Source: Escherichia coli (GTDB lineage: Bacteria; Pseudomonadota; Gammaproteobacteria; Enterobacterales; Enterobacteriaceae). From it: a DNA stretch of 64,000 nucleotides. Location of the stretch: the NCBI RefSeq assembly GCF_050920415.1, contig NZ_CP169309.1; one strand, written 5' to 3'. The position numbers and the translations under genes are program-made. The notes under the pieces are model-generated. The model did not search any database. It saw only the letters and a program-made list of their open reading frames with translations, and was not told the origin of the DNA. Below, in pieces: positions 35,295-42,485 of the stretch; position 1 is the stretch's first letter, and the number at the start of each line of letters is the position of its first letter.

Positions 35295-36850
35295 TTATTT
35301 AATATCTTTCACGCGCATACCGTTGATCTGTTCATCCGTGATGGTATTACCCGCTTTAAAGTAATCAACCACCGCGTGATAAACGTAATAACCGCCCGTC
35401 GTATTGCGCGCTTTACCCTCGGTAAACGCGGTAAAACCATCTCCACCATCAGCAAGGAAACTCTGAGTGGCAATGTGGTAAACCGTCGCATCTTCAATCG
35501 GTTTGCCATTCAAAGTCAGTGAGATAACCCGCTGACCAACCGGCTTGCTGCTGTCGTACTTCATTTCCAGGCCTTTCGATACCTGTAAAACGCCATTACT
35601 TAAACTTGCGCCGTGTTCCATCAAACTGCGTAATTGTTTACCCGTGAGATCCATCGTCACCAGTTCGTTGGGGAACGGGAAGGTACTGATGACGCCACCC
35701 ATCGTAATTGCACCCGCCGGGATCTCATTGCGAATCCCGCCAGAGTTGGTTAACGCCAACTGGGTATTTTTACCCGCCGCTGCCAGCAAAGCGTCCGCCG
35801 CCAGGTTCCCGAGGGAAGCCGATTCACCATAGGCACGTTTTAATTCAACCGGCGATTGCGCCACCGTTTGCTGACTTCATCCAGCTTTTTGTTCCAACTA
35901 TCAATCACCTGTTTCGTTTGCGGATCGGGCTTCCACTCATCGGCGTAAAGGGTTTTAAGCTCGAAGTTTTTCACCGTAAAAGTGTGCGGCTTCTCTTTGT
36001 AGTCGAGAACCAGTTTACCCACATCAATCCCGCCGCTGTCAGTGGAGAGGATTAACGTATTGCCGACTTTAATCGGTTCCGGCGTACCCACATGTGCATG
36101 CCCGGTGATCAAAATATCCAGCCCTTTCACCTGACTTGCCGTCTGAATATCTTTATCCAGCGCGCGACGCACATCTGTGCCTCCCATACTGGACTGGCGG
36201 GCCGGAACACCTTCGTGGATCAGGGCAACGGTCAAATCAACCTTGCCTTTGAGTTCATCGATATAACGTTGTAGCCATTTAATTTCATCACGCGCCTCAA
36301 TACCCACTCGCGTTGCCGCAGATACCGTATCATTAAAGGCAAATACACCGTGCAAACCAATCACGCCAATTTTCACGCCGTCTTTTTCAATGATGGTATA
36401 GGGCTTATCCCAGAATGATTTACTGCTGTTCTGATAAAAAACATTACCCTGCACAATCGGGAATTTTGCCTGACTCAGCTGTAATAACGTATTGTCCCAG
36501 CCGTGATCAAATTCATGATTACCTATAGTGACCGCATCGAACGGCATGGTATTCATAATATCGATAATCGCCTTGCCTTTAGTCAGGCTGCTGATATACG
36601 GCCCGGTAAAATAGTCACCCGCATCAAAAAACCAGGTCGCTTTGTTTTTAGCTTTTTCTTGTTTAACAAGCGTAGTGATATTTGCCCAGCCGCCAATATC
36701 TCGTTTACCGTCAGCAATCCACGGCACTTTATAAGGCTCTACATGTGCATGGAGGTCGTTGGTATAAATGATGGTGACATCTTTGGCGCAAGCCCAAAAC
36801 GGCAGTGTTAATGCGATACCCGCAGCAAGCATTTTAATTTTCATAAACAA
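35295..36850 (-). pseudogene. Frameshifted periplasmic 5'-nucleotidase/metallophosphatase paralog (UshA/CpdB-type two-domain enzyme)
   Basis: ORF 35840..36850 (336 aa, signal peptide MFMKIKMLAAGIALTLPFWA; metallophosphatase motifs NDLHAH, DAGDYF, GNHEFD, GHAH) is followed in another frame by ORF 35295..35864 (189 aa, nucleotidase C-terminal domain). The two parts align end-to-end with the intact downstream paralog, so a single frameshift near 35860-35875 splits one gene. Confidence 0.75.
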
Positions 36851-36976: not shown

Positions 36977-38104
36977 ATGTCAAATCTGTTTGCGATTAAT
37001 GTCTGTAAAACGTTCGGTTGTCGAAATTTGGGATTGGCCTCATCGGAAGATTACAGTTGGCCAGACTATAAACTGGGTTTTCCGGCACTACACTGCCAGG
37101 CATGCGGAAGTTACCCCCCTTTGTTTGATGAACAACAATTTCGTGACTGGTTGTCAGTTCACATGACTACGTGTGCCATAGAAACAGGGCATTTTTGTCC
37201 ATCATGCTATTGTAAAGAAAAGATTTTTTATGGCCACAACCCGCAGGGAACACAACGCGTTCAATGCCGTTCATGCAAAAAAGTCTGGACTCCGAAACAG
37301 CAGCCAGCAAGAGAAATTACGTATCCCCAGTCCATTGAAACCGTTCAACTGTTCATGCCCTTTCAAGGAGCCAGCGCACTACAAAAGCTCTATGTTTTAG
37401 TCAGTCTTGACGCCACTCGTGGCAACATCCTTCATCTCTCCACGAATTATACGCAACATCAGACAGGAGACAGTCTGCGGTACAGTTACAGAGGCAATAC
37501 AGAACCAACTGAGCACCATAGCGATATTGTGCAGAGGGTAGATATGCGTGAAGCGCAATTCTTGCGCCGGAGCCAGTTCGATGAAATTCAGTATGGCAGT
37601 GCTGTGCTCAAGCGCAATGGCAAGGGAGCCATACTACGCCCGGTTATCACGGCACACGGGCATTTCAGAATACTGAAAATCCGCTTTCCACATGTCAAAA
37701 CGCATATCATTTCACACGAATGTTTTCTGAGAGGCGCAATTATTACAGCCTGGGCAGATCAGTTCCGCCAACAACAAGGCGAACTTTGGTTCGTAGAAGA
37801 AGAAATCAGCGACCGTAACGCTGATATTCCCTGGCATTTTCAGGGAACGACATACCATGGTTGGTGGCAAAATCAGTGGCAACGCTGGGGGCAGGGGAAT
37901 AACAGCAAGATGGTCTGCCTGCTCACAGGAGTCTCCTTAGAAAGGGGCGCAAATGTTTCTCTGGCAACCAGTCGTTGCTTTATCACATGGCTGACAGACC
38001 AACACGACTTTACCCAAAGCGCGTTATTATCCGCAGGTCGCGTAACGAAAATGCTGACCTCACTGGCGTTAAAATACAATGAATCGCTCAATCCATCTTG
38101 TTAG
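36977..38104 (+). CDS. Hypothetical cysteine-rich protein with an IS1 InsA-like N-terminal zinc ribbon
   Basis: 375 aa. N-terminal 100 aa carry CxxxxC, CxxC, CxxC and CxxC motifs (CKTFGC, CQAC, CPSC, CRSC); the stretch CPSC..RVQCRSCKKVW resembles the IS1 InsA zinc finger CPSC..RYLCSHCRKTW as I recall it. No recognisable DDE or HTH motif seen by eye in the remaining 270 aa. Flanked by AT-rich DNA. Confidence 0.6.
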   Translation: MSNLFAINVCKTFGCRNLGLASSEDYSWPDYKLGFPALHCQACGSYPPLFDEQQFRDWLSVHMTTCAIETGHFCPSCYCKEKIFYGHNPQGTQRVQCRSCKKVWTPKQQPAREITYPQSIETVQLFMPFQGASALQKLYVLVSLDATRGNILHLSTNYTQHQTGDSLRYSYRGNTEPTEHHSDIVQRVDMREAQFLRRSQFDEIQYGSAVLKRNGKGAILRPVITAHGHFRILKIRFPHVKTHIISHECFLRGAIITAWADQFRQQQGELWFVEEEISDRNADIPWHFQGTTYHGWWQNQWQRWGQGNNSKMVCLLTGVSLERGANVSLATSRCFITWLTDQHDFTQSALLSAGRVTKMLTSLALKYNESLNPSC

Positions 38105-38333: not shown

Positions 38334-39887
38334 ATGATGAGAACTGTATTTACGACTTTATCAGTCATATTCAGCGTGATGTTTTCTCACAGTATACTAG
38401 CTCAGGACGTTACTATTTATTATACGAATGATATTCACGCACATGTCAATCCGGCAAAAATTCCCGCTGTTGATAAGAACAGACTTGTAGGTGGTATGGC
38501 TAATATCGCAGGCATCGTTAATGAAGCGAAGAAAAAAAACAAAGATGTCTTTTTCTTTGATGCAGGCGACTATTTTACCGGTCCGTATATCAGTACCCTG
38601 ACCAAAGGTGAAGCTATTATTGATATCATGAACACCATGCCCTTTGATGCGGTGTCCGTTGGTAATCACGAGTTCGATCACGGCGTGCCCAATATGGTAT
38701 CTCAGTTATCAAAAGCAAAATTCCCCATTCTGCTGGGAAATATTTACTACACCGATACAAATAAACCAGTTTGGGATCATCCGTGGACCATTATCGAAAA
38801 AGATGGTTTAAAGATTGGTGTGATTGGATTGCATGGTGCATTCGCTTTCTATGATACAGTCGCGGCAAAAGCACGTGAAGGCGTAGAAGCCAGAGACGAA
38901 ATTAAATATTTAAATAAAGCACTTGCAGAATTAAAAGGTAAAGTCGACATTACCGTTTTGCTAATTCACGAAGGTGTTCCGGCGCGTCAATCAAGCTTTG
39001 GTAGTAAAGATGTGGAGCGGCTACTACAGGCAGATATTGAGACAGCTAAAAAAGTGAATGGTGTTGATGTCTTAATTACCGGTCACGCACATGTCGGAAC
39101 ACCGCAACCAATAAAAGTTAATAACACATTAATTGTATCTACCGATGCATACGGCACCGACATCGGAAAACTTGTGCTTGATTACAATCCGAAAACAAAG
39201 AAAATTGATAGTTATAATGGTGAGTTAATCACCATCTTTGCAGATCAATTTAAACCTGACACCATCGTTCAAAATACTATCGATAAATGGAGCGTAAAAC
39301 TTAACAAAATAACACAGGAAGTTGTCGGCCATTCTCCCGTAGTTTTAACACGTGAGTATGGCAGTTCTTCTTCTACCGGTAACCTTATTCTGGATGCAAT
39401 GATGGAAAAAACACCTGATGCCATTGCCGGATTTCAAAATAGCGGTGGGATGCGAGCTGATTTTCCTAAAGGTGATATCACACTGGGAGATGTTATTAGC
39501 ACATTCCCCTTTAATAATGACCTCATCGAGATGGATTTGACGGGCCGCGATCTCAAATCGTTGATGACGCATGCAACCAATCTAACTAACGGTGTGTTAC
39601 AGGTTTCAAAAAGCGTTGCGGTTGTCTATGACAGCAAAAAACCACTCAACCAACGGTTAATCTCTTTCACCATTAACGGCAAACCCGTGGAAGATAATCA
39701 AACATATCGTATTGCCACGCACTCCTTTTGTGCCAGTGGTGGTGACGGTTTTGAAGCATTTTTGAATGGAAAAAATGTGAAGACGATACCGGGAACAACC
39801 TCGGCGGAATCAATCATCGATTATTTCAAAAATCATAAACCTGTCACCCCAGACTTAACTAAACGAGTCATGGACGTCGCCAAATAA
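38334..39887 (+). CDS. Periplasmic 5'-nucleotidase/metallophosphatase (UshA/CpdB family), paralog B
   Basis: 517 aa; signal peptide MMRTVFTTLSVIFSVMFSHSILA; all metallophosphatase motifs present (NDIHAH, DAGDYF, GNHEFD, GHAH) plus a C-terminal nucleotidase domain. Strong RBS aggaggg; the start may be the second ATG at 38337. Confidence 0.8.
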   Translation: MMRTVFTTLSVIFSVMFSHSILAQDVTIYYTNDIHAHVNPAKIPAVDKNRLVGGMANIAGIVNEAKKKNKDVFFFDAGDYFTGPYISTLTKGEAIIDIMNTMPFDAVSVGNHEFDHGVPNMVSQLSKAKFPILLGNIYYTDTNKPVWDHPWTIIEKDGLKIGVIGLHGAFAFYDTVAAKAREGVEARDEIKYLNKALAELKGKVDITVLLIHEGVPARQSSFGSKDVERLLQADIETAKKVNGVDVLITGHAHVGTPQPIKVNNTLIVSTDAYGTDIGKLVLDYNPKTKKIDSYNGELITIFADQFKPDTIVQNTIDKWSVKLNKITQEVVGHSPVVLTREYGSSSSTGNLILDAMMEKTPDAIAGFQNSGGMRADFPKGDITLGDVISTFPFNNDLIEMDLTGRDLKSLMTHATNLTNGVLQVSKSVAVVYDSKKPLNQRLISFTINGKPVEDNQTYRIATHSFCASGGDGFEAFLNGKNVKTIPGTTSAESIIDYFKNHKPVTPDLTKRVMDVAK

Positions 39888-39921: not shown

Positions 39922-41547
39922 ATGCGAATGAAAACAGTGCAGCGTACTTTACTTGCCGCAACATTGCTGACTATTTTTTCGGTCTCAGTCATGGCGCAGG
40001 ATGGCACGATTATTTATACAAATGATCTTCACACTCATGTGGATTCTTATAAAGTGCCGTATATCGCAGACGGAAAACGCGACATTGGCGGCTTTGCCAA
40101 TATATCTACTTTAGTAAAACAAGAGAAAGCGAAAAATAAAGCCACCTTTTATTTTGATGCTGGAGACTATTTCACCGGCCCTTATATCAGCAGTCTGACA
40201 AAGGGCGAAGCAATAATTGACATTATGAATACCATGCCTTTTGACGCAGTATCAATCGGCAATCATGAGTTTGACCATGGCTGGGATAATGCCCTGCGAC
40301 AATTAAGCAAAGCGAATTTTCCTGTTTTATTGGGCAATGTTTATCATAAAGAGAGTGAGAAACCCTTCTGGAACAAGCCCTACACCATCCTGGAAAAAGA
40401 TGGCATCAAGATTGGTATTATTGGGCTACACGGCGTATTTGCATTTAATGATACGGTCTCGGAGCTCTCTCTCCAGGGACTCGATAATGACAATAATAAC
40501 CGCTTTGATAAATCTTCCGAGACCCTTAAGAATCAGGGGATTGAAGCACGTGATGAAGTGAAGTATTTGCAGCATTATATCGACGAGTTACGTGATAAGG
40601 TTGACCTCACTGTGGCGCTGGTTCATGAAGGCGTTCCGGCGCGTCAGTCCAGCATTGGCAATACAGATGTTAGACGCGCTCTTGATAAAGATATTCAAAC
40701 CGCTAGCAAGGTGAAAGGATTGGATATTCTGATTACCGGGCATGCCCACGTCGGAACGCCAGAACCAATCAAAGTCGGCAACACCTTAATCCTTTCGACT
40801 GATAGTGGCGGTATCGATATTGGTAAATTAGTCCTTGATGTCAACCCTACAGCTCGTACCCATAAAATGAAGAGCTTTGAGCTGAAAACAGTTTATGCCG
40901 ATGAATGGATACCCGATCCAACGACACAAAAAGTTATCAATGGCTGGAATAAAAAACTGGCGGATATTGTACGCCAACCAGTGGGTGAATCATCGATTGT
41001 ATTAACTCGCGCCTATGGTGAGTCATCGCAACTAGGCAACCTGTTTACCGATGCAATGCTTGTCGCTGCTCCGACTGCACAGATTGCATTGATAAACTCC
41101 GGCAGCTTACGTGCGGATATAAATGCAGGCACGATTACCTTTGGCGACATTACCAGTACATTCCCCTTCAAGAATGAACTTACTGAAATGGATCTCAGCG
41201 GTAAGGATCTGCGTAACCTACTGGAACACGGGGCATCGCTTACCAATGGCATCCTGCAAATGTCAAAAGGCGCAGAAATGCGCTATACCCCGCAGAAACC
41301 AGTAGGTCAGCGCATAGTATCTTTTAAAATTAATGGTGAAGAGATCGTTGATACGAATATTTACCATGTTGCAACAACGACTTTCCTTGCACTGGGGGGC
41401 GATGGTTTTCTGGCATTCAAAGAAGGGAAAAATGTTCAGGTCCGCGCCAGAAATAACATGTCCGATGTCGTGATCGATTATTTGAAGAAAGGCCACAAGA
41501 TTACGCCTGCACAGGTAAATGAAATGCGGGTGGACGTTAGCAAATAA
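39922..41547 (+). CDS. Periplasmic 5'-nucleotidase/metallophosphatase (UshA/CpdB family), paralog C
   Basis: 541 aa; signal peptide MRMKTVQRTLLAATLLTIFSVSVMA; metallophosphatase motifs intact. The N-terminal domain is about 80-85% identical to the frameshifted paralog and carries an extra N/D-rich segment of about 25 aa. Confidence 0.8.
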   Translation: MRMKTVQRTLLAATLLTIFSVSVMAQDGTIIYTNDLHTHVDSYKVPYIADGKRDIGGFANISTLVKQEKAKNKATFYFDAGDYFTGPYISSLTKGEAIIDIMNTMPFDAVSIGNHEFDHGWDNALRQLSKANFPVLLGNVYHKESEKPFWNKPYTILEKDGIKIGIIGLHGVFAFNDTVSELSLQGLDNDNNNRFDKSSETLKNQGIEARDEVKYLQHYIDELRDKVDLTVALVHEGVPARQSSIGNTDVRRALDKDIQTASKVKGLDILITGHAHVGTPEPIKVGNTLILSTDSGGIDIGKLVLDVNPTARTHKMKSFELKTVYADEWIPDPTTQKVINGWNKKLADIVRQPVGESSIVLTRAYGESSQLGNLFTDAMLVAAPTAQIALINSGSLRADINAGTITFGDITSTFPFKNELTEMDLSGKDLRNLLEHGASLTNGILQMSKGAEMRYTPQKPVGQRIVSFKINGEEIVDTNIYHVATTTFLALGGDGFLAFKEGKNVQVRARNNMSDVVIDYLKKGHKITPAQVNEMRVDVSK

Positions 41548-41624: not shown

Positions 41625-42485
41625 ATGTGTATAAAAAAGCACGGGATAGCTTTATCGATTCTATTAATACCTTGCATTGGAAACGCTCAGGAAATTAAAA
41701 GTGAGGAAGGCTGGTTACATCAAAGCTTGAATGTCATTGGTCGCACAGACTCTCGCTTTGGCCCAAGGCTGACTAACGACCTCTACCCTGAATATACTGT
41801 AGCAGGAAGAAAAGACTGGTTTGATTTTTATGGTTATGTTGATCTACCAAAATTCTTTGGCGTCGGCAGTCACTATGATGTTGGGATCTGGGATGAGGGC
41901 TCACCACTATTTACGGAAATAGAACCTCGGTTTTCCATTGACAAATTGACCGGATTAAATCTTGCGTTCGGCCCTTTTAAAGAATGGTTCATTGCAAACA
42001 ACTATGTCTATGATATGGGTGACAACCAGTCATCCCGGCAAAGTACATGGTATATGGGGCTTGGTACAGATATCGACACGGGTCTACCAATTAAGCTTTC
42101 TGCCAATATATACACCAAGTATCAGTGGCAAAACTATGGTGCCGCTAATGAAAATGAATGGGACGGATATCGATTCAAAATAAAATATAGCATTCCTCTT
42201 ACCCATTTATTCGGAGGGCGATTGGTATACAATAGTTTTACTAACTTTGATTTTGGCTCCGATCTTGCGGACAAATCACACAATAATAAACGAACCAGTA
42301 ATGCTATTGCTTCAAGCCATATCCTTTCCCTGCTATATGAACACTGGAAATTTGCATTTACACTACGTTATTTTCACAACGGTGGACAATGGAATGCTGG
42401 GGAGAAAGTTAACTTCGGAGATGGTCCATTTGAATTAAAAAACACAGGATGGGGAACCTATACTACTATTGGTTATCAATTTTAA
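41625..42485 (+). CDS. Tsx-family nucleoside-specific outer membrane channel paralog
   Basis: 286 aa; aligns along its whole length with E. coli Tsx as I recall it (e.g. [63 protein letters not shown]). Signal peptide present. Confidence 0.8.

Follow-up and report, generated by a model that had tools for sequence, protein, structure and literature searches.

One of three 5'-nucleotidase paralogs in the metF-metL region of Escherichia coli carries an ancient, conserved 20-residue insertion

Background

Why does one of three neighbouring 5'-nucleotidase paralogs on an Escherichia coli chromosome carry an extra segment in a loop where the other two have only a short linker? The sequence analysed, a stretch of 64,000 nucleotides that we call the window, includes the region of the E. 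coli chromosome between metF and metL and is there 100% identical to NZ_CP169399. The metL-metF island is an accessory trait found in approximately 12% of complete E. coli genomes, many of its carriers are extra-intestinal pathogens (UTI89, 536 and BEN2908, for example), and it encodes three uncharacterised periplasmic nucleotidases together with a Tsx-like channel. No other structural feature sets paralog C apart from A and B as clearly as the insert does, and since it is also under selection it offers a handle for asking why three paralogs have been kept. A literature search found no publication on the insert and no biochemical data for paralog C, and searches on PDB entry 3IVD and on c4894-c4898 gave nothing relevant.

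Results and discussion

Gene content of the metF-metL region

Paralog C (39922..41547, plus strand; the RefSeq start is at 39928) encodes a predicted periplasmic metallophosphatase/5'-nucleotidase of 541 amino acids, with a signal peptide ending in VMA before Q. Paralog B (38334..39887, plus strand) is intact, while paralog A (35295..36850, minus strand) is a frameshifted pseudogene in this strain, its intact ortholog being c4898, the protein of PDB entries 3IVD and 3IVE. Sequence comparison identified the gene between A and B (36977..38104, plus strand) as encoding a hypothetical protein of 375 amino acids that is conserved in the cluster; with its weak InsA-type zinc ribbon it is a possible regulator. 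Downstream of paralog C lies a Tsx-family outer-membrane nucleoside channel gene (41625..42485, plus strand; NCBIfam PRK15106, 490 bits against a cut-off of 311), followed in the window by metL and then metB.

Pfam assignments of identical and near-identical proteins give paralog C the architecture PF00149 (Metallophos) followed by PF02872 (5_nucleotid_C), and the protein matches PDB 3IVD over its full length (E = 1e-226). The dimetal and catalytic motifs are present as DxH (D35, H37), GD (D79, D82), GNHE (N114, H115), H235 and GHxH (H274, H276), and these columns are invariant in an alignment of 84 sequences. Invariant as well are the substrate-binding residues of the C-terminal domain, R363, N392, R397, F416 and F496, which align to R354, N390, R395, F417 and F500 of CD73. 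By every criterion of sequence and fold paralog C is a member of the two-domain dimetal 5'-nucleotidase superfamily, with a predicted activity to match. It scored 151.3 bits against the UshA equivalog model (NCBIfam NF007109), below the cut-off of 600, and by this comparison paralog C is a member of a distinct subfamily and not a UshA ortholog.

Length and boundaries of the insertion

The segment SELSLQGLDNDNNNRFDKSSETLKNQG is encoded in the frame of paralog C at 40459-40539. The interval originally assigned to the extra segment, 40462-40540, corresponds to E181-G206 plus one extra base. When the three paralogs of the window were aligned a clean 20-column gap was produced, in which paralog C has 26 residues (E181-G206) against six in the others, AAKARE in paralog B (within a linker AAKAREG) and SAATRV in the pseudogene copy A (within SAATRVG), in keeping with the sequence-only reading, which had reported only a short linker for these two. 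The insertion proper consists of 20 codons, E181-E200 (ELSLQGLDNDNNNRFDKSSE; 40462..40521, plus strand), as defined by the gap against the paralogs and 103 homologs and by a codon alignment of 12 carriers, with edges that are ambiguous by a few codons. The residues that follow, TLKNQG (40522..40539, plus strand), align with xxMRQG in relatives and are a diverged remnant of the ancestral short linker. TLKNQ, the last five to six residues of the segment, replaces the ancestral xxMRQ linker. By the gap in the alignment the net insertion is 20 amino acids (60 nt); the extra segment noticed from the sequence alone is thus present, but the length of approximately 25 residues first given to it was too great. 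The segment had been placed within the conserved catalytic domain, and it does lie there, in the N-terminal metallophosphatase domain.

In order to define how variable this loop is among relatives, its length was counted in 119 database homologs, each of at least 450 amino acids. The spacing between the equivalents of T178 and I207 was 8 residues in 103 of them and 28 in the remaining 16, with no intermediates. That the segment might be ancestral, and universally carried by homologs, is not borne out by this count. A wider survey covered 194 5'-nucleotidase domains from 150 representatives of 50%-identity clusters, with identities of 27-64% for full-length matches and higher values in a few short fragments. 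The distance between the equivalents of H170 and E208 fell between 13 and 19 residues in 186 of the 194 domains (mode 16), and paralog C, at 37, was the longest. The loop is normally held at a fixed length, so that the insert of paralog C is exceptional. The insertion is a confirmed fact of the alignment, for which chance is not at issue.

Distribution and origin of the insertion

Apart from two recombinants, every protein in a database search that was at least 74% identical to paralog C had the insert and every protein at 72% identity or below was without it. Gene C was found in 658 of 5426 complete E. coli genomes, all of them with the insert and with one full-coverage copy each. A degenerate DNA pattern for G-L-D-N-[DN]-x-[NS]-x-R-F-x-K-S matched six of 100,044 species-representative genomes (E. 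coli, E. albertii, Escherichia sp., Enterobacter asburiae and two Citrobacter sp.), always in this gene. With the insert columns excluded and the two recombinant proteins P0015 and P0031 removed, the carriers were monophyletic in 98 of 100 neighbor-joining bootstraps, and their sister group was an insert-less clade of Cronobacter, Atlantibacter and Citrobacter. Multiple origins had been considered on the strength of a first tree in which the carriers were not monophyletic; this was traced to the same two proteins and the idea was rejected. P0015 occupies the A position beside metF and is of A type except for residues ~100-240, which are C-type and include the insert, and its insert is 100% identical to the window allele over 75 nt; this is a gene conversion from C into A. 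P0031 is a hybrid of B (1-240) and C (241-end) and has no insert.

The monophyly of the carriers indicates that the insertion arose once, and the short linker of the outgroups that it is derived. Alignment gave the short linker in all other homologs as well as in the outgroups, in agreement with the initial view of an insertion specific to paralog C. That view had also allowed that the insertion might be recent. It is ancient: the same 20 residues are found in carrier genes from E. coli, E. albertii, Escherichia sp., Citrobacter and Enterobacter, whose synonymous sites are 46-90% different and whose proteins differ by up to 20% in sequence, and a synonymous divergence of 0.46-0.9 per site between carriers is not that of a recent event.

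The source of the inserted DNA was also considered. In the window a perfect 9-nt inverted repeat, GGTCTCGGA at 40455-40463 and TCCGAGACC at 40516-40524, brackets most of the insert and includes BsaI-like GGTCTC/GAGACC sites, an arrangement that raised the possibility of exogenous or artefactual DNA, such as what is left of a small mobile element. The repeat hinges on a single SNP found in the minority allele of the window: the common (UTI89-type) E. coli alleles read GCG in place of GAG, and in other genera neither arm is the same. Since it is confined to one minority allele, the repeat is coincidental and not a terminal repeat. Searches with blastn-short and tblastn of the window and 15 related loci returned self matches alone, revealing neither a donor nor a further copy; each of the 658 E. 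coli genomes has the insert at one place; and the six species-representative matches all fall within this gene. On these data we regard a mobile or exogenous origin as extremely improbable. A miniature mobile element in particular was rejected, the terminal repeats being unconserved among orthologs and extra copies absent. Weaker inverted matches to upstream sequence, considered as traces of a template switch, were not colinear as a hairpin copy would be and were taken as chance.

Selection on the insert

Pairwise Nei-Gojobori comparisons of six orthologs gave pN values of 0.02-0.09 for the insert against pS values of 0.46-0.8 in most pairs, and pN reached 0.13-0.22 only in pairs with the most divergent carrier. 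This pattern is like that of the gene as a whole, for which dN/dS is 0.03-0.10. Among 12 carrier genes, 15 of the 20 insert codons varied synonymously and eight varied in amino acid, while the corresponding numbers for the other 485 codons were 380 and 145. Within the insert and a few flanking residues, 19 of 31 positions were invariant across carriers, including L182, S183, G186, L187, D188, N189, R194, F195, K197 and S198, and the length of the insert did not vary. Purifying selection thus acts on the insert as it does on the remainder of the enzyme. The insert had been described as low-complexity sequence, but it does not behave as a drifting tract of that kind: its length is fixed and its pN/pS resembles that of the catalytic core.

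Structure and position of the insert

AlphaFold2 modelling of paralog C with the 84-sequence alignment gave a mean pLDDT of 85.7 and a pTM of 0.84, and Foldseek matched the model to 3IVD with a TM score of 0.89. Residues 182-204 were modelled as coil without regular structure at pLDDT below 50, which may reflect disorder without a defined role or merely a shallow alignment in this part of the protein. Helices at 181-187 and 199-204 appeared only when the alignment was restricted to carriers, and that model was unusable (mean pLDDT 32). The prediction thus agrees with the sequence-only reading that the segment is a loop, here a non-regular one of low confidence. Structure prediction had further been proposed as a way to place the loop relative to the active site; AlphaFold2 predicted a loop but gave no confident structure for it, and the site was placed instead by profile alignment.

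The insert comes after a strand (I164-G171) and a short helix (172-178) and before a strand at 207-209. In a profile-to-sequence alignment the four residues just after S180 align opposite the SNPG of CD73, the snake-venom enzyme and the Thermus enzyme. In a crystal structure, Asn186 of the CD73 loop S185-N186-P187-G188 contacts ligands in the inter-domain cleft (PMC13077603), and docking points to the same contact (PMC8657903). The alignment of the insertion site with this SNPG loop implies, by homology, a position at the rim of the cleft. We infer from a profile alignment of ~24% identity in a loop region that the insert probably belongs to the N-terminal-domain side of the cleft rim, opposite the C-terminal domain that binds the nucleoside.

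Substitutions that accompany the insert

The carriers also share substitutions elsewhere in the protein. Defining a carrier-diagnostic position as one at which a single residue is found in at least 90% of carriers and at most 3% of non-carriers, we found 15 such positions, five of which lie within five residues of the substrate-binding anchors: T391I and G395S in the N-S-G-G-x-R motif, I411T and P417K around the clamp residue Phe416, and D/P491L before G-G-D-G-F. N486T and Y142H are diagnostic as well and lie outside the five-residue neighbourhood of the anchors. The enrichment near the anchors is modest (P = 0.011, hypergeometric, with the neighbourhood defined after the data had been seen). 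In control clades the corresponding counts of diagnostic positions near the anchors were 0 of 3 for the sister clade, 2 of 16 for A-type and 3 of 28 for B-type proteins. H142, K417, T486 and L491 were present in all carriers, and I391, S395 and T411 were missing from the most divergent carrier, P0014.

Association with a Tsx-family gene

The insert-bearing gene directly adjoins a Tsx-family gene in all 13 complete carrier loci, and such a neighbour was found in neither of two loci of the insert-less sister clade (Cronobacter, Atlantibacter). Three architectures were seen among the carrier loci: A (minus strand), the hypothetical gene, B, C and Tsx (architecture I); the hypothetical gene (minus strand), A, in some cases B', then B, Tsx and C (architecture II); and C with Tsx alone (architecture III), represented by one locus holding just these two genes. 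Paralog B, paralog C and the Tsx-like gene were each found in 658-660 of the 5426 complete E. coli genomes, and their equal frequency suggests that the island is inherited as a unit.

Possible roles of the insert

The results above are consistent with the following model. A single ancient in-frame insertion of 60 nt entered a normally length-constrained loop of the N-terminal metallophosphatase domain in one paralog lineage. This loop leaves the strand ending in G168-L-H-G171 on the active-site face and, by profile alignment, corresponds to the SNPG loop of CD73 and other 5'-nucleotidases, which borders the inter-domain cleft next to the nucleobase. The 20 extra residues could then form a flexible rim or lid on the cleft, and this lid may act together with the co-inherited substitutions near the nucleoside-binding motifs (H142, K417, T486 and L491, and later I391, S395 and T411) in changing either the nucleotides accepted by paralog C or the closure of its two domains. 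Paralog C would then have a role of its own, apart from those of A and B, within a nucleotide-scavenging module of which a Tsx-type channel is a constant member. The reading we favour, tentatively and with somewhat less than even confidence, from the alignments and the conservation of the segment, is that of a selected loop or lid at the cleft rim that retunes substrate access, specificity or domain closure. The insert is a plausible, though unproven, specificity element and one that would not surprise a specialist. If a lid or a metal switch were true, the segment would be a compact example of a loop insertion retuning a fold shared with human CD73; if the insert had no measurable effect it would be an ordinary lineage-specific indel.

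One alternative reading is that the insert is a tolerated, functionless surface loop, a harmless historical accident, which would fit its N/D-rich composition, its pLDDT below 50 and its want of any domain match or known function. Its invariant length, and the invariance of 19 of 31 positions across genera whose synonymous sites approach saturation, run against such a loop; moreover no cluster at 74% identity or above has lost the insert secondarily, with the exception of the one B/C hybrid, and a gene conversion brought it unbroken into a gene that is otherwise A-type. With both its sequence and its length constrained, we disfavour this reading and consider it unlikely. A second possibility, compatible with the cleft-rim model, is that the insert is a structural Ca2+ loop of the EF-hand-like or DxDxDG type, ordered by metal binding. 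The conserved core D188-N-D-N-N-N-R-F-D196 (40483..40509, plus strand) has the 1, 3, 5, 7, 9 spacing of such a loop, and in all carriers D-N-D-x-N-x-R-F-D agrees with PROSITE EF-hand positions 1-7 and 9, with changes at ligand positions that stay within the allowed set (D to N at position 3, N to S at 5, N to H at 6 and D to S at 9). The relaxed pattern recurs just once more in the 19,457 residues of the window's open reading frames, and 3.1% of loop shuffles match it. Set against these points, position 12 is S, A or G and not Asp or Glu, position 8 is Phe, outside the PROSITE set in which an aliphatic residue is expected, a Pfam scan of the insert and its flanks gave no match even at E <= 10 (no EF-hand), a PDB sequence search with the 27-amino-acid segment returned nothing even at E <= 10, AlphaFold2 gave no confident helix-loop-helix, and the pattern was noticed after the fact. 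We judge a Ca2+ loop to have a small but real chance of being correct; in it D188, D190, N192, the R194 carbonyl and D196 would bind the metal, and the last ligand would come from elsewhere, by analogy with the periplasmic galactose-binding protein. The DxDxNxxFD core could bind Ca2+, a possibility that we treat as a lead and no more.

A regulatory or interaction role, which had been raised from the sequence alone, is possible. In its most specific form the insert would be a docking element for a partner, either the periplasmic face of the Tsx-type channel or another of the paralogs, so that hydrolysis is coupled to transport. The adjacency of C-type and Tsx-family genes in all 13 complete carrier loci and across three architectures would fit such a role, as would the want of a Tsx neighbour beside the insert-less sister genes and the conserved hydrophobic residues L182, L/I184, L187, F195 and L202 within an otherwise polar loop. 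Adjacency is, however, expected for any shared pathway; the insert-less A and B share these clusters and B too abuts the Tsx gene in architecture II, and the Tsx partners are only 57-63% identical between architectures, whereas the insert is nearly invariant. Docking appears improbable to us. It is tempting to speculate that a metal-dependent, EF-hand-like lid, acquired once, gates the cleft or docks to the Tsx-type channel, and that paralog C and the channel form a Ca2+-responsive, channel-coupled scavenging unit spreading as a two-gene module among Enterobacteriaceae, but this combination would be a long shot.

Comparison with known systems

The island is the same as the region named GR 31 metL..metF in ExPEC strains, whose authors proposed that it is a module for nucleoside/nucleotide processing and uptake (PMC12928451). 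In the numbering of GR 31, ORF 231 (1620 bp) corresponds to paralog C, ORF 331 to B, ORF 431 to A and ORF 131 to the Tsx homolog; the passages on this region mention neither the insertion nor differences among the three paralogs (PMC12928451).

For the candidate metal-binding core the nearest parallels are the EF-hand-like Ca2+ loop of nine residues in periplasmic D-galactose-binding protein and the DxDxDG loops in general. The insert shares with these the spacing D-x-[DN]-x-[DNS]-x-x-hydrophobic-[DS], a periplasmic location and the want of a canonical acidic residue at position 12. Unlike them it has Asn or His, not Gly, at position 6, and it gave no profile match.

Human CD73 and E. coli UshA are two-domain dimetal 5'-nucleotidases that undergo domain closure. 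Paralog C has in common with both its domain architecture, metal ligands and substrate-binding Arg, Asn and Phe residues, and within this comparison its AlphaFold2 model was closest to closed-state CD73 (Foldseek TM 0.75-0.78). These two enzymes are only 21-24% identical to paralog C, and they have a loop of normal length at the insertion point.

The closest relative of known structure is c4898 of E. coli CFT073, annotated as a 'putative 5'-nucleotidase' and solved in complex with uridine and cytidine (PDB 3IVD/3IVE), the sole solved member of this uncharacterised enterobacterial subfamily. It is 66% identical to paralog C and belongs to the same subfamily and fold (Foldseek TM 0.89-0.96, rmsd 2.1 A), and it comes from the same gene cluster, being the intact form of the window's pseudogene paralog A. 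In contrast to paralog C it has the short SAATRVG linker and is without both the 20-residue insert and the carrier-specific pocket substitutions. The solved structure of paralog A offers a direct comparison for the insert-bearing enzyme.

Probable recombination among the nucleotidase paralogs

A sign of exchange between the periplasmic 5'-nucleotidase genes comes from P0015, a database homolog of paralog C encoded in E. coli GCA_001520995.1 (locus L009, 3398-5011). This gene is A-type and occupies the A position, adjoining metF, but sequence comparison showed that residues ~100-240 are C-type and include the 20-aa insert, the extra loop of paralog C. The insert region was 100% identical to the window allele across 75 nt, and the central tract looks like the product of gene conversion in the direction C to A. 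The L009 contig stops ~320 nt inside gene C, consistent with the converted tract having broken the assembly. A second protein, P0031 (ENA metagenome, 492 aa), is B-type over residues 1-240 and C-type from residue 241 onward, without the insert. Unequal recombination of the tandem genes B and C could account for this hybrid, as could a chimeric assembly.

At 40455-40463 and 40516-40524, bracketing most of the insert, lies a perfect 9-nt inverted repeat, GGTCTCGGA / TCCGAGACC. It arises from the replacement of one Ala codon, GCG, by the Glu codon GAG, which is specific to an E. coli allele group in the minority: at >=99% identity, 97 of the 658 genomes belong to it. The repeat lacks conservation and was judged coincidental.

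The loop P-A-R-Q-S-S-x-G, invariant throughout the subfamily, spans residues 239-246 of paralog C (40636-40659) and closely follows the metal ligand H235. This loop also had a pLDDT <50 in the AlphaFold2 model, the rest of which was confident, and may represent a mobile active-site loop particular to the subfamily.

Organization of the cluster

The same gene set was found in at least three cluster architectures when L003, L004 and L010-L015, a set of related loci, were compared with the window, with the Tsx gene, encoding an outer-membrane nucleoside channel, lying either downstream or upstream of C. Between architectures the Tsx partners share only 57-63% identity versus 80-87% for C. The pattern implies shuffling, or that the channel gene was recruited independently. 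The window's Tsx-like ORF (41625-42485, + strand) is full length at 286 aa and scored 490 bits against NCBIfam PRK15106 (cut-off 311); 280 residues are identical to the UTI89 copy, and it ends in the usual C-terminal Phe. Its designation in RefSeq record NZ_CP169399 as a partial pseudogene without a C-terminus is probably an annotation artefact.

Every cluster also contains a gene for a 375-aa hypothetical protein (36977-38104, + strand), transcribed divergently from the A-type gene, and in Cronobacter and Atlantibacter a 37-40% homolog lies upstream of the insert-less sister genes. Searches of NCBIfam and Pfam matched nothing beyond a weak InsA/IS1-type zinc-ribbon at residues 74-115 (E = 7e-4 and 0.009, respectively). 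The protein is a candidate for a dedicated regulator.

In the window strain, one frameshift close to codon 327 inactivates paralog A (35295-36850, - strand); past this point, reading continues in another frame. The UTI89 copy is intact, and intact paralog A has been crystallised (PDB 3IVD/3IVE).
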